Shown: positions 6,309 to 23,018, numbered from the stretch's first letter. The stretch: 32,000 nt of DNA from an archaeon GW2011_AR10 (GCA_000830275.1 CP010424.1:1209429-1241428), one strand, 5' to 3'. Notes: a model not told the origin generated them from the sequence alone. Translations and numbers: made by a program.

Positions 6309-6410
6309 GGGCTCGTGGTCTAGTGGCATGACGGATCCTTGGCGATGAATGCAAAATTAATGCTTTCACTTGAATGGATCAAATTGGGGGTTCGATTCCC
6401 CCCGAGTCCA
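6309..6410 (+). tRNA. tRNA-Ala(GGC) with an intron of about 30 nt in the anticodon loop
   Basis: Acceptor GGGCTCG/CGAGTCC with the G3:U70 alanine identity pair. D-arm GTCT-AGTGGCA-TGAC, anticodon stem GATCC/GGATC, variable loop AAATT, T-arm GGGGG-TTCGATT-CCCCC, discriminator A. The 5' side of the loop reads TTGGCG (anticodon GGC), then ~30 extra nt. Exact splice sites were not resolved by eye. Confidence 0.8.
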
Positions 6411-9462: not shown

Positions 9463-9639
9463 ATGGTTAGACAGGAGACTAAACTAAAGTGTATTAGATG
9501 CGGCTACTTCATTGTATTGGACAGCCCGAGAGCCAAAGAAGTCAGTTGCCCGAAGTGCTCGCAGCAGTGGAAACTAATCAAAGAAGAAGACGAACTCTTT
9601 CTAGAACCGATTGAAACAATAACAGAAAAATCACCCTAA
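9463..9639 (+). CDS. Small zinc-ribbon protein (58 aa), not in the ORF track
   Basis: ATG is preceded by GGAGG (9451-9455). Translation is MVRQETKLKCIRCGYFIVLDSPRAKEVSCPKCSQQWKLIKEEDELFLEPIETITEKSP, with CxxC..CxxC. Confidence 0.55.
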   Translation: MVRQETKLKCIRCGYFIVLDSPRAKEVSCPKCSQQWKLIKEEDELFLEPIETITEKSP

Positions 9640-9817
9640 TTTCCTAAAAGTTGCTTTAAAATTTTTTCCCACCAAGAAATCATTCAACCCAAAAGATACC
9701 TCGGCTTTTAAGTCGCGGTTATTGGCCTCGGTATCTTTTCCGTTGACGGGTTCATGACGTCCATTAAATGTTGGGATACCCCTGCCTTTAGGCATGGGAG
9801 GACGTCATTTGCTTGAA

Positions 9818-9843
9818 GGGCCTATGGTCTACCGGTATGATTC
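9818..9843 (+). pseudogene. tRNA 5' fragment (acceptor 5' strand plus intact D-arm), partner of the 3' fragment at 11723-11747
   Basis: GGGCCTA-TG-GTCT-ACCGGTA-TGAT-T. It shares GGGCCTnTGGTCTA with tRNA-Val at 11425. Its acceptor strand is perfectly complementary to TAGGCCC at 11740-11746. No anticodon or T arm follows. Confidence 0.6.
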
Positions 9844-10013
9844 ATTCTAATTTTTTCAGACACCTCCAATTTAGAATTTTTTCTTAGGACTCTGATTTTC
9901 TCGGCTTAAACCTTTGCACGTCTGAATCTCTAATTTTTGTGCAAAGGATTTAATGCCTCCAAAATCAACAGAGACGTCCACGAAAAAATTCATCATTCAT
10001 TGGAGGTGATTCG

Positions 10014-10148
10014 ATGAAAAATTTTAATTTTCAAATTCCCTCAAAGGGAGAACTCAGAAGAGCTCTAGGATTAGCTCACTCAAATCCAGAAGAACTAACT
10101 GACAGGGAGCTTTGGATTCTAGAAGAGTTTGGAGGAGATTTTCAGTGA
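10014..10148 (+). CDS. Small ORF (44 aa), first gene of the endonuclease operon
   Basis: GGAGGTGA lies 4-11 nt upstream of the ATG. Translation is MKNFNFQIPSKGELRRALGLAHSNPEELTDRELWILEEFGGDFQ. Its stop overlaps the next start (GTGA). Confidence 0.45.
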   Translation: MKNFNFQIPSKGELRRALGLAHSNPEELTDRELWILEEFGGDFQ

Positions 10149-10297
10149 GCTTTATTCTTCTATTTCTTTTTAGCTTGATTTTCTTTCCTCTGCTCTTTAT
10201 TCTTGATGCATTTGGATTTAATGAAGAAGCATATGAGATAGCGAAATATCTAGTAGCTTTTTTCTTAGGAATGCTTGTTTGGGAGTTGGTGTTATGA
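10145..10297 (+). CDS. Small two-TM membrane protein (50 aa)
   Basis: GTG 10145 has GGAGGAG 8 nt upstream. Two hydrophobic segments, SFILLFLFSLIFFPLLFIL and YLVAFFLGMLVWELVL. Its stop overlaps the endonuclease ATG (ATGA). Confidence 0.4.
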   Translation: MSFILLFLFSLIFFPLLFILDAFGFNEEAYEIAKYLVAFFLGMLVWELVL

Positions 10298-11439
10298 ATC
10301 CCGCACCGGAAATGAACCCTCAAATTCGATATAAATCTAAAAAACTAATTTCTTTTATGAAAAGCCTTTCTGGTTATACAATAGAAGAAAAAAGAGTATT
10401 GCTTGAAGATCCAAAACTATTTTTTAGAGCAATTAAAGAATCTCCAAAATACCTTTCTTGGAATTCTCTTGTCGAAGATGTTAGTTGTGCAAATACAACT
10501 TTGAAAAAGTATAGGCGAGGAGAGTTAACTATCCGAGGAGATATTTTCCTTAAACTTTTGAGTTATTTAAGTAAAAATCAAAAGCAAAGACTAATTTCCA
10601 AGATAAATTTAGTGAATTCTAATTGGGGTGCAATTAAGGGCGGTAAGCGAGGTTTTGCAGTAATAAAAGAAAAGTATGGTGAAAACTATTTGGAGATGCT
10701 AAGAGTCAAAGGTCAGCGAGCAAGTTTGAATAGCCCATTGTTCATTACCAAACCAATGGAAATTACTATCCCTTCAAGCATTACTATGGAAATTGCAGAG
10801 CTATTTGGAGCCTATCTTGGGGATGGAACTTTAACAAAATATTTTATGAGAATTGCAGGGGATAAGCGACTGGATAAGTATTATTTCATCTATCTTTCAG
10901 GATTAATCAAAAAGAATTTTGGATTGAGTTCAACCATAAAAGAGATAAGCCTTTCTACAAATCAACTTTGCTTGGAAATAAGATCAAAAAGATTTGTGGA
11001 TTATTTCAGACATGTTTTTCAACTGAAAATAGGGAATAAAATTAGAAATTCATCAAAAATTCCTGAATTTATTATAGAAGACAAGGAATTAGCAAAAGCG
11101 TGTTTGAGAGGGTTGATGGATACTGACGGATCTTTTTCAAGGAGGTCAACATATATGTGTTTAGCTTTTACGTCCCATAGCCCTATACTGCTAGGCCAAG
11201 TTCATAATCTTGGTTTAAAATTTGGGTATTTTTCCTATAAATTTAAAGATCAAGTAGGTTCTAATTCTTCTGGCAGAATAAAGAAGTATTTCTCAGAAGT
11301 TGGCAGTTCAAATTTGAGGCATATAGTCCGTTACCATGAACATCTTAAAAATAACCGTTTTTTGTATTCTGAGGAAACATTAAAATATTTTCCTGAATAT
11401 CAAAATCTTATGCTGCCATATTATGGGCCTGTGGTCTAG
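10294..11439 (+). CDS. Double-motif LAGLIDADG homing endonuclease with an N-terminal HTH-like extension
   Basis: Motifs are LFGAYLGDGT (from ~10801) and LRGLMDTDGS (from ~11104), about 100 aa apart. The coding region is AT-rich. ATG 10294 is preferred over the track start TTG 10279. The TAG stop (11437-11439) lies inside the D-arm of tRNA-Val. Confidence 0.85.
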   Translation: MNPAPEMNPQIRYKSKKLISFMKSLSGYTIEEKRVLLEDPKLFFRAIKESPKYLSWNSLVEDVSCANTTLKKYRRGELTIRGDIFLKLLSYLSKNQKQRLISKINLVNSNWGAIKGGKRGFAVIKEKYGENYLEMLRVKGQRASLNSPLFITKPMEITIPSSITMEIAELFGAYLGDGTLTKYFMRIAGDKRLDKYYFIYLSGLIKKNFGLSSTIKEISLSTNQLCLEIRSKRFVDYFRHVFQLKIGNKIRNSSKIPEFIIEDKELAKACLRGLMDTDGSFSRRSTYMCLAFTSHSPILLGQVHNLGLKFGYFSYKFKDQVGSNSSGRIKKYFSEVGSSNLRHIVRYHEHLKNNRFLYSEETLKYFPEYQNLMLPYYGPVV

Positions 11440-11535
11440 TGGTTAGAGAGCTTAGGAAAAATTAATCTTGGCTCTCCCGCAAATGACGTTACCTTGACAT
11501 GGTAAAGATCGGCAGTTCGATTCTGCCCAGGCCCA
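11425..11535 (+). tRNA. tRNA-Val(GAC) with a 38-nt intron in the D-loop (position 20/21)
   Basis: After removing 11445-11482 the 73-nt product folds as GGGCCTG TG GTCT AGTGGTTA TGAC G TTACC TTGACAT GGTAA AGATC GGCAG TTCGATT CTGCC CAGGCCC A. A bulge-helix-bulge surrounds the insert. Confidence 0.85.
11445..11482 (+). other. Predicted BHB-type tRNA intron
   Basis: The 4-bp helix GTGG(11439-11442)/CCGC(11477-11480) is flanked by the 3-nt bulges TTA (11443-11445) and AAA (11481-11483) on opposite strands. The intron helix is GAGAGC(11446-11451)/GCTCTC(11471-11476). Confidence 0.75.
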
Positions 11536-11545
11536 CTTTAAATCA

Positions 11546-11715
11546 GGTAATTCCACCGTTTTCAAACGGTAGTCAGGTAAAACTTTGACAAATCAAGTGA
11601 TTGCTCCATATTTCATTTTGTCAAAGTTTTAGTGGAATTACTACTGTCAAGAACCACTTGCTTGTTTTGGAATTTTATAAACATGCCACTGACTTTAGTC
11701 GGTGGTTCTTGACAA
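11546..11715 (+). repeat. Structured intergenic repeat, copy B (longest copy)
   Basis: Stem 1 is GTAATTCCAC(11546-11555)/GTGGAATTAC(11632-11641). It encloses CCGTTT-TC-AAACGG and a 14-bp stem AAAACTTTGACAAA/TTTGTCAAAGTTTT. Stem 2 is TGTCAAGAACCAC(11645-11657)/GTGGTTCTTGACA(11701-11713). Confidence 0.75.
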
Positions 11716-11722
11716 CAATTTA

Positions 11723-11747
11723 GGCGGTTCGACTCCGCCTAGGCCCA
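11723..11747 (+). pseudogene. tRNA 3' fragment (T-arm, acceptor 3' strand, discriminator)
   Basis: GGCGG-TTCGACT-CCGCC-TAGGCCC-A. No matching 5' strand lies within 1.8 kb except GGGCCTA at 9818. It differs from the tRNA-Val 3' end at 4 of 25 positions; two of these are the paired 52:62 positions and one is position 66, whose partner (position 7) changes correspondingly in the 5' fragment. Confidence 0.65.
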
Positions 11748-11810
11748 CTAATTTAGCTAGGAAAACAGTATGGCCTGCATTTAAAGTTTTTTTTGTAAGC
11801 TATTTATTTT

Positions 11811-12032
11811 ATGGGCAAATCCTATAAAATCGTTGTTGAAAAAGGATTTGACGGCTATTTAGTTGCAGAGGTGCCAGAGTTCCCAGGCTGTTATACTCAA
11901 GCGAAAACCATGAAAGAACTCATGTACAATGCCAAAGAAGCGATTGAACTGTATCTTGAGTCGGAAAAAGAATTGAAAAGAAGGCCCCAGAAAAGGTTTT
12001 TAGGCATAAAAGAAGTTGTCATAAATGCCTAA
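11811..12032 (+). CDS. hicB: HicB-family antitoxin (UPF0150)
   Basis: YKIVVEKGFDGYLVAEVPEFPGCYTQAKTMKELMYNAKEAIELYLE is the classic HicB N-terminal fold signature. 73 aa. Confidence 0.8.
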   Translation: MGKSYKIVVEKGFDGYLVAEVPEFPGCYTQAKTMKELMYNAKEAIELYLESEKELKRRPQKRFLGIKEVVINA

Positions 12033-22532: not shown

Positions 22533-22868
22533 CTATTCCAAGTGCTTGAGCTTTAAAAAGCAGTTCTCGCAAATGAACCGTTCCTTGAAGTCAATCCCGT
22601 TTTCATCAAGGTTTGCGCAAAGAATGCAGCGCCTTCCACTGCTTGTGTTTTTTTTGTTTGCCCACTCAAACAATAAATCCCACGTAACCCATCTTGGAAT
22701 GACGACTTCCTGCATCACTGTTTTATCGTTCTGCTGGATTCTCTTGATGTGGCTTGGCAGCATTGTCTTTTCGAGGTTCTGCATCCACCGCACCCTTTCG
22801 AAAGCGCCTTTCCGGATGAATTCGTTCATTGTCTCGTTAAAAACAGCCATTAAATCACGCAATTCCAC
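22533..22868 (-). CDS. Hypothetical protein with a C-terminal CxxC..CxxC zinc ribbon (111 aa, or 105 aa from ATG 22850)
   Basis: The minus-frame protein has a normal composition and ends in CILCANLDENGIDFKERFICENC. The overlapping plus-strand ORF 22480-22944 looks random. Confidence 0.55.
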   Translation of the reverse strand: MELRDLMAVFNETMNEFIRKGAFERVRWMQNLEKTMLPSHIKRIQQNDKTVMQEVVIPRWVTWDLLFEWANKKNTSSGRRCILCANLDENGIDFKERFICENCFLKLKHLE

Positions 22869-22930
22869 TGTTTTAAAACCCCAGAAGCAACATAACCTGC
22901 CACTGACTCTAGTAATTGGTTCTTTACACC
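22859..22930 (+). repeat. Structured intergenic repeat, copy X (internally deleted)
   Basis: GCAATTCCACTGTTTTAAAACC matches the copy B 5' end (20 of 26). ATAACCTGCCACTGACTCTAGTAATTGGTTCTTTACACC matches the copy B 3' end (32 of 40). About 105 nt of copy B are missing between them. Confidence 0.65.
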
Positions 22931-23018
22931 AGCTAAACAGATAAGAGACAAGAAGTTAATTAAAGTTTCGTTTCAATAAAAATTTAATTCTTTTTTTCCA
23001 GTAGTTTTAAGGTGGCTA

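Follow-up and report, generated by a model that had tools for sequence, protein, structure and literature searches.

Homing endonucleases persist in essential genes through self-splicing introns, archaeal introns and inteins, and those of phages can stand free beside their target. The element described here lies in a 32,000-nucleotide (nt) stretch of archaeon GW2011_AR10 (GCA_000830275.1, CP010424.1:1209429-1241428), a member of the Diapherotrites/Iainarchaeia (DPANN) from groundwater. This whole stretch is called the window and its numbering is used throughout for AR10; the feature under study is the plus-strand interval 9818-11747. Judging from its sequence and from related loci, the interval is likely a free-standing LAGLIDADG homing-endonuclease cassette that was inserted in a former intron-less tRNA-Val(GAC) gene and carries a complete tRNA-Val(GAC) of its own. 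Because the cassette carries this complete gene, tRNA function would be restored by replacement and not by splicing.

Several described systems share part of this design. Group I introns with homing endonucleases are found in bacterial tRNA genes, such as the tRNA-fMet intron of Synechocystis, where the target is likewise a tRNA gene; there, the tRNA is recovered by self-splicing of the intron, and the enzyme belongs to another family than that of the LAGLIDADG cassette. The archaeal enzymes I-DmoI and I-Tsp061I, from bulge-helix-bulge introns of rRNA genes, resemble the AR10 protein in fold, in their monomeric double motif, in their archaeal hosts and in targeting a stable-RNA gene. However, they are encoded within a spliced intron, so that splicing repairs the host RNA, and their target is rRNA, whereas the open reading frame (ORF) in AR10 does not lie in an intron, a second complete gene would restore function, the target would be a tRNA gene, and the protein has an extra N-terminal domain of about 150 amino acids (aa). 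The endonucleases of the inteins TliVMA, PhoVMA and PI-SceI are closest by sequence and structure (7qss, 7qsu, 7qst; NCBIfam intein models), but the cassette enzyme has no Hint or splicing domains, stands free and would not have a protein-coding target.

The nearest analogue of the cassette is SegB of phage T4, a free-standing GIY-YIG homing endonuclease in a tRNA gene cluster (PMC2330249). SegB is reported to have its recognition site in a tRNA gene (a T-psi-C stem-loop motif), and its homing carries neighbouring tRNA genes along with the endonuclease gene and displaces the tRNA region of the recipient (PMC2330249). SegB differs in being a GIY-YIG and not a LAGLIDADG enzyme, in belonging to a phage and not to a cellular chromosome, in using long phage homology, and in having neither an ORF-tRNA overlap nor split remnants around a single replacement gene. 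In Caldiarchaeum subterraneum, 1.8 kb separate a 5′ tRNA fragment from an intact downstream tRNA that has the same identity and contains an intron, and a mobile-element ORF lies in this gap (PMC3293823). That ORF encodes a DNA recombinase on a multi-copy transposable element, and no 3′ remnant, ORF-tRNA overlap or endonuclease is reported at this locus (PMC3293823).

We compared the window with 80 loci obtained from a scan of one genome per species, comprising 36 close homologs (protein at least about 35% identical) and 44 distant homologs (below 35%; L045-L088), and with the endonuclease-less loci L089-L092. The features that carry the argument are these:

9818..9841, plus strand: 5′ remnant (A) of the putatively displaced tRNA-Val, an acceptor 5′ strand and intron-less D-arm (tRNA positions 1-25)
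10294..11439, plus strand: gene for a 381-aa free-standing double-motif LAGLIDADG endonuclease (PF14528 LAGLIDADG_3, E=1e-9)
11378..11393, plus strand: promoter-like box CATTAAAATATTTTCC for the inner tRNA, inside the endonuclease codons T-L-K-Y-F-P
11425..11535, plus strand: intact tRNA-Val(GAC) of the cassette (Rfam RF00005, 55.4 bits)
11709..11747, plus strand: 3′ remnant (B) of the putatively displaced tRNA-Val (nhmmer, model positions 31-71, E=0.0016)

A single former tRNA-Val gene left its 5′ piece at 9818-9841 and its 3′ piece at 11709-11747. A common origin of the outer fragments had been proposed by an earlier examination of the window without database searches (the sequence-only reading), whose quoted strings all occur where it placed them, and this proposal holds. 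The outer acceptor strands GGGCCTA (9818-9824) and TAGGCCC (11740-11746) are perfectly complementary (7/7) and differ from the inner pair GGGCCTG/CAGGCCC by a compensatory change at 7:66. Positions 11723-11747 form a perfect T-arm (GGCGG TTCGACT CCGCC), acceptor 3′ strand and discriminator; T-arm motifs of this type occur three times on the two strands of the 32 kb, the other two being those of the two intact tRNAs. A tRNA-Val profile hidden Markov model (HMM) trained on 18 other loci matched 9818-9845 at model positions 1-28 in a 126-kb search with nhmmer (E=0.013), and an HMM of the 5′ half matched 9818-9841 with E=1.2e-4; the similarity of the 5′ remnant may extend to 9848 (CATTC, anticodon-stem 5′ strand). 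Since the match of the 3′ piece spans 11709-11747, this piece also takes in a decayed anticodon loop (TTGAC at 11709), which together with the variable region occupies 11709-11722. The earlier statement that no anticodon arm was found for the fragments is thus only partly right. The 3′ remnant is also a direct repeat of the inner tRNA 3′ end (27 nt, 85% identical), and 9818 is preceded, at a distance of about 50 nt, by a promoter-like ATTAAATG box.

ARAGORN reported no tRNA whatsoever in the window, a silence that is uninformative because the program cannot handle D-loop introns. When 9600-11900 was scanned with Rfam by E-value, the outer fragments were not matched as truncated tRNAs, and the only matches were weak, chance-level ones to other families (HEARO, E=0.11; U3-like, E=0.99); Rfam also found no group I intron in the window. 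As a separate observation, 11723-11747 resembles positions 5156-5182 of L009 (Ca. Iainarchaeum andersonii), with 22/27 identities and a compensatory T-stem change (GGCGG/CCGCC vs GGCAG/CTGCC). If the 3′ remnants of the window and L009 are orthologous, they would be surprisingly well preserved for non-functional DNA.

The intron-bearing tRNA-Val that had been recognized by eye within the interval was recovered by Rfam at the score given above, with anticodon GAC and a 37-nt insert in the D-loop (about 11446-11482, between tRNA positions 21 and 22); it is because of this placement that ARAGORN misses the gene. The insert can be folded into a bulge-helix-bulge-like structure whose 4-bp central helix (GUGG/CCGC) is accompanied by a UUA bulge and a closing intron hairpin. 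The same geometry, with different, covarying hairpins, was found in L039, L011, L013, L043, L089 and L091, and the central pairs are formed 4/4 in all seven genes. The 3′ bulge has 2-3 nt, which makes the motif one of the relaxed type. It is likely that the D-loop insert is a true intron that can be spliced.

The 3′ end of the endonuclease ORF overlaps the promoter-like box, the leader and the first 15 nt of the inner tRNA. The CATTAAAATATTTTCC motif recurs at about −47 of tRNA-Val in the endonuclease-less L089 and L091, and also in L009-L013 and L039; in the C-terminal codons of the endonuclease, the box reads CATTAAAATATTTTCC in Iainarchaeia and TTTATATA in Woesearchaeota-type copies. From its recurrence and position, 11378-11393 would act as a promoter. 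Because both the box and its distance match those of endonuclease-less genes, the C-terminal motif TLKYFP of the protein may be constrained by the tRNA promoter, as a case of dual coding.

The three ORFs with overlapping stop and start codons noticed in the sequence-only reading (10014-10148, 10145-10297 and 10294-11439) are present, and only the last, that of the 381-aa protein, has a family assignment (PF14528). Its two LAGLIDADG motifs are LFGAYLGDG (around residue 177) and LRGLMDTDG (around residue 278); none of the 33 homologs departs from D177, D276, D278 or the Gly residues next to them, so that both catalytic Asp residues are kept. The AlphaFold2 model has a mean pLDDT of 88.3 and, together with Foldseek, predicts a core in which the alpha-beta-beta-alpha-beta-beta-alpha fold is present twice, preceded by a helical N-terminal domain of about 150 aa. 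The top Foldseek matches were the endonuclease domain of the TliVMA intein, I-Tsp061I and I-DmoI (probability 1.00, about 190-215 columns), with WhiA and the bI3 maturase also among the structural matches. With its invariant catalytic Asp residues, a confident model and bona fide homing endonucleases as its closest structures, the enzyme looks active. A scan of viral contigs found only distant LAGLIDADG relatives (at most 33% identity) and identified no viral vector.

The association of this gene with tRNA-Val is a property of the family. Of the 36 close homologs, 31 have a tRNA-Val on the same strand at the end of the ORF, and in all 31 the ORF overlaps the tRNA 5′ end by 1-38 nt; the anticodon is mostly GAC, and CAC in four. 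The recurrent protein C-termini GPVV*, GPMV* and GPWSSG* arise because the tRNA 5′ end GGGCCNGUGGUCUAG is translated in different frames. The recurring unit consists of promoter, endonuclease gene and complete tRNA, and typically measures about 1.1 kb. Some variant layouts were also seen. In L017 (3938-5152), L021 (3582-5072) and L024 (3713-4975), the endonuclease is preceded by an intact tRNA-Val(CAC); among these, L017 and L021 have only a 3′ tRNA remnant downstream of the endonuclease, and the ORF of L017 is flanked on each side by a copy of one 27-nt piece from the tRNA 3′ half. The tRNA-Val of L026 (1067-1137) is on the opposite strand.

Remnants of a second tRNA-Val likewise recur. At least 10 loci (L009, L019, L031, L033, L034, L038, L042, L044, L017 and L021) have a 3′ tRNA remnant right after the intact gene, beginning at model positions 23-45 and, in the best-preserved cases, 23-31. 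The remnants of L033, L034 and L038 start with the anticodon stem, 0-2 nt past the intact gene, and since their T-arm and acceptor differ from those of the intact gene, they derive from a different, older one. In about 12 loci, a 5′ remnant stands 10-80 nt ahead of the start codon of the endonuclease, and TATA-like boxes follow it. All of these 5′ remnants are intron-less, and the 5′-half HMM gave seven matches at E<=1, compared with 0-1 in each of 20 control sets. The remnant ends in ...TATGAT (tRNA position 25) in the window, L025, L027, L014 and L035, and is more decayed in L013; equivalent remnants in L025 and L027 are also visibly decayed (ACTTTTATGAT). Because the remnants end and start there, the insertion point can be placed at the boundary between D-stem and anticodon stem, at positions ~25-32, and one fixed insertion point is as expected for a site-specific nuclease. 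L031 repeats the pattern of the window in full: its outer halves GGGCTCG/CGGGCCC pair with each other, unlike the inner GGGCCGA/TCGGCCC, by compensatory changes at 6:67 and 7:66 and a one-sided change at 5:68.

Relatives without the endonuclease show what the site looks like in the absence of the cassette. The gene order of the window (coiled-coil protein, Zn-ribbon protein, cassette with tRNA-Val, TtuA, L15e) is shared by L089/L090 and L091, where the site has one intact tRNA-Val(GAC), uninterrupted by a cassette, and no trace of LAGLIDADG sequence even at E<=10. These are different species, with TtuA proteins 66% and 63% identical to that of the window. The tRNA-Val genes of L089 and L091 have the D-loop intron at the same position and the same promoter box as the inner tRNA. 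At the Rfam gathering threshold, these sites had appeared empty of tRNA, an idea that was dropped because nhmmer found a long-intron tRNA-Val there.

Other Iainarchaeia have the cassette at this locus in either orientation, with the cassette inverted relative to its flanks in L011-L013, and all contigs of the AR10 species carry it. The 23 best cassettes fall into seven unrelated flank contexts. The GC content is 0.336 at 10001-11500, compared with 0.40-0.46 (about 0.43) in the flanks; the AT-rich block noted earlier is therefore present, but the contrast is milder than the 25 vs 48 percent then claimed. The seven contexts, the inversion and the low GC content can be read as signs of mobility. 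The sequence-only reading had named a selfish cassette with a replacement tRNA as one plausible interpretation, and the linkage in 31/36 homologs, the flanking remnants in many loci, the pairing in L031 and the syntenic relatives lacking the endonuclease all speak for it.

The cassette could have spread as follows. By analogy with established homing, we infer that the enzyme would cleave tRNA-Val DNA, with the exact cut site near positions 25-32 of an intron-less gene, and would spare the inner copy. The break would then be repaired from a cassette-bearing copy, with the short 5′ remnant as left homology and either the cassette tRNA or the 3′ remnant as right homology. Endonuclease and tRNA would be copied into the target together, and the old halves would stay behind as decaying flanks, later to decay further or to collapse via recombination between the tandem 3′ parts.

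How the inner copy would escape cleavage is suggested by its D-region. A D-region intron is present in 14/32 inner tRNAs, and several others have an altered D-stem (AAACT/AGACT), which suggests that the inner copy may be protected by a D-loop intron 4-5 nt from the junction or, elsewhere, by altered D-stem bases. Immunity is nevertheless treated here as hypothetical because about five inner tRNAs (L009, L010, L015, L020 and L022) have neither feature and because endonuclease-less alleles are also intron-bearing.

This and several other points weigh against the interpretation as a homing cassette with a replacement tRNA. About 18/32 inner copies are without an intron, which leaves immunity unexplained for these copies, and since endonuclease-less alleles carry the D-loop intron, it would be a trait of the lineage and not an invention of the cassette. 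The disrupted gene may be a remnant co-converted from the donor rather than the resident gene, and the outer tRNA did not turn up intact in two exact-pattern scans of metagenome contigs. Even the nearest relatives without the endonuclease are distant (TtuA 63-66% identical), and no recent presence/absence polymorphism is documented. Moreover, the cassette is syntenic within two large lineages, the Iainarchaeia and a 10-locus Woese/Nanoarchaeota cluster, a distribution that would fit long vertical inheritance as well as repeated homing.

As a rival explanation, the inner tRNA could be the ancestral resident of this locus, with a free-standing endonuclease upstream of it, and the outer pieces by-products of imprecise repair or passengers from the donor, with nothing replaced in this genome. 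The position of the intron, the bulge-helix-bulge motif and the promoter box all match those of the endonuclease-less L089 and L091, and an intact outer tRNA was found nowhere in the scans just mentioned, but we consider this explanation unlikely. A compensatory change lets the outer halves pair with one another but not with the inner gene, as in L031; local duplication of the inner ends would not yield an intron-less D-arm; the 5′ piece has its own promoter-like box upstream; and the 3′ remnants of L033, L034 and L038 begin right where the intact gene ends. It is also conceivable that the protein is a domesticated LAGLIDADG host factor tied to tRNA-Val, for example a WhiA-like DNA-binding regulator or an RNA maturase, so that the linkage would reflect co-expression and the tRNA pieces would be old scars. 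Syntenic retention in the two lineages, the extra N-terminal helical domain, the presence of WhiA and the bI3 maturase among the structural matches, and the interlacing of the ORF with the tRNA promoter could be taken that way. However, both catalytic Asp residues are invariant in the 33 homologs, and WhiA is not known to keep these residues. The closest syntenic relatives lack the gene and manage without it, the cassettes of several lineages directly adjoin pieces of different tRNAs, the distribution is patchy with seven unrelated contexts and low GC content, and subfamilies track different tRNAs in bacteria and archaea. We therefore regard domestication as quite improbable.

A decayed integrase-type element flanked by att-like tRNA duplications, which the sequence-only reading had listed among its alternatives, is very improbable. 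It has in its favour that tRNA genes are classical integration sites, that the 5′ tRNA fragment of Caldiarchaeum was attributed to a recombinase element (PMC3293823), and that the 27-nt repeat is 85% identical. No integrase or recombinase domain was found in the ORFs of 9818-11747, in which LAGLIDADG is the only domain; the unit is only about 1.1 kb long; three tRNA pieces (5′, whole and 3′) are present, compared with the two att sites left by one recombination; and the compact design with overlapping ORF and tRNA recurs. A functional split or giant-intron tRNA, with 9818-9841 and 11709-11747 joined as RNA, is hardly credible, although the acceptor complementarity is perfect, the T-arm is intact, and archaea are known to have split and multi-intron tRNAs (PMC4390854). 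The stretches 9842-9848 and 11709-11722 contain no anticodon stem, the latter reading TTGACAACAATTTA and lacking its partner strand. No bulge-helix-bulge can be drawn and the junction flanks do not pair, the equivalent remnants of L025 and L027 are visibly decayed, and the interval already contains an intact tRNA-Val(GAC).

The distant homologs extend the association beyond tRNA-Val. A tRNA on the same strand starts within about 160 nt of the stop codon in 38/44 of them, usually overlapping it. In bins of bacterial candidate phyla radiation (CPR), Omnitrophota and Planctomycetes genomes, it is a tRNA-Ser (GCU/CGA/UGA), and in DPANN archaea (Woese-, Pace- and Nanoarchaeota) a tRNA-Gln(CUG), Glu, His, Leu or Val(UAC). 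The tRNA-Gln group has 5′ remnants of 22-28 nt followed by a TATA box before the ATG, with remnants seen in L049, L051, L052, L060 and L075; the break lies after GGTCAA(A), at positions 22-28, and the promoters are arranged as in the tRNA-Val cassettes. L015, L031, L046, L056, L064 and others have archaeal synteny or archaeal-type tRNAs, yet they were binned in bacterial metagenome-assembled genomes (Chloroflexota, Planctomycetota); these cassette contigs are probably mis-binned. Taken together, the close and distant homologs may represent a large class of selfish elements, apparently not yet described, in DPANN archaea, CPR and other bacteria. These would be free-standing LAGLIDADG genes that home at the D-arm/anticodon-stem junction of tRNA genes, rely on neither intron nor intein, carry a replacement tRNA whose promoter and 5′ end lie in the ORF, and comprise subfamilies for tRNA-Val, Gln, Ser and Glu; D-loop introns of the target genes would protect against the nuclease. 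We put this combined view forward tentatively, since we rate it at slightly short of an even chance.

The AR10 cassette is enlarged by lineage-specific material, namely, a hairpin leader, two small ORFs and a 173-nt hairpin spacer:

9842..10013, plus strand: conserved 5′ leader of the cassette, 172 nt, a single long imperfect hairpin
10014..10148, plus strand: 44-aa ORF, lineage-specific (ORF list; annotated as a gene in public assemblies)
10145..10297, plus strand: 50-aa hydrophobic ORF with GTG start, lineage-specific, overlapping both neighbours (GTGA, ATGA)
11536..11708, plus strand: spacer between the intact tRNA and the 3′ remnant, 173 nt, two long hairpins

The predicted fold of the leader has 53 pairs, four of them compensatory, and CACCTCC at about 9866 pairs with the Shine-Dalgarno sequence GGAGGTG of the first ORF at about 9999. 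Because this anti-Shine-Dalgarno sequence is predicted to pair with the ribosome-binding site, the leader probably limits expression. The leader is 86% identical over 152 nt to L015 2810-2960, which there lies directly 5′ of the endonuclease ATG, and is absent from the endonuclease-less loci L089-L092. A further match was seen at L010 3581-3617. The endonucleases of the window and L015, which share the leader at 86% identity, are only about 41% identical. A reading of the minus strand of 9842-10013 as a C/D-box small RNA was rejected, as the terminal stem is on the wrong side of the CUGA box.

Neither small ORF has a family match in Pfam or NCBIfam. In a tblastn search of the other cassettes, the 44-aa ORF gave nothing credible (one 13-residue match, in L030, E=0.033), and no homolog of the 50-aa ORF was found at the other loci. 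Because they are unconserved in other cassettes, the two ORFs are not core parts of the element. As to the spacer, the "structured repeat" of the sequence-only reading is real, in that 11536-11722 folds into two long hairpins (minimum free energy −60.2 kcal/mol, z=−7.6). The inverted repeats are 11578-11592/11617-11631 and 11645-11657/11702-11714, both 100% complementary, and the hairpin arms hold TTGACA, a word of the tRNA-Val anticodon loop, in both orientations. The spacer has no match in other cassettes and is possibly a fold-back repair scar or a small inserted repeat. Its ends weakly resemble 22850-22931, which lies 11 kb away within the coding sequence of a 154-aa ORF.

Two neighbouring genes are recorded as side observations. 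A 73-aa HicB-like antitoxin gene lies at 11811-12032 between the cassette and TtuA, and no obvious HicA partner was read there; the gene is present in L009 and L011 and absent from the endonuclease-less L089 and L091. A second intron-bearing tRNA at 6309-6410 (50 bits), also missed by ARAGORN, has a 33-nt intron in its anticodon loop. Its ortholog in L089 (9501-9572) is intron-less, and that in L091 (9854-9944) has a 22-nt intron.

In the searchable literature, we came across no account of a link between LAGLIDADG genes and tRNA genes in archaea or CPR bacteria. The sequence-only reading had likewise been unaware of a described tRNA-gene cassette of this form, and that literature holds none that we could find. 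A homing endonuclease that stands free and brings along a replacement for its own target thus appears not to have been previously described. If the interpretation is correct, it would add a third strategy to those of spliced elements and of free-standing phage enzymes, in which a cellular free-standing endonuclease invades an essential tRNA gene and compensates with a spare copy. The AR10 cassette is not unique to its locus but is one member of a large family in archaea and bacteria. Such a family would account for orphan tRNA halves and tandem tRNA fragments in very small-celled microbes and for the mis-calls of these loci by annotation tools, and possibly for the persistence of odd D-loop introns in these tRNA genes. 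It would also offer dozens of natural LAGLIDADG enzymes whose targets of about 20 bp are predictable from the remnant junctions, which would be useful for meganuclease engineering. The idea that disrupted tRNA genes resist mobile elements has been credited to Randau and Soll (PMC4390854), and D-loop introns that protect against a nuclease would be a concrete instance of this idea, testable in vitro.

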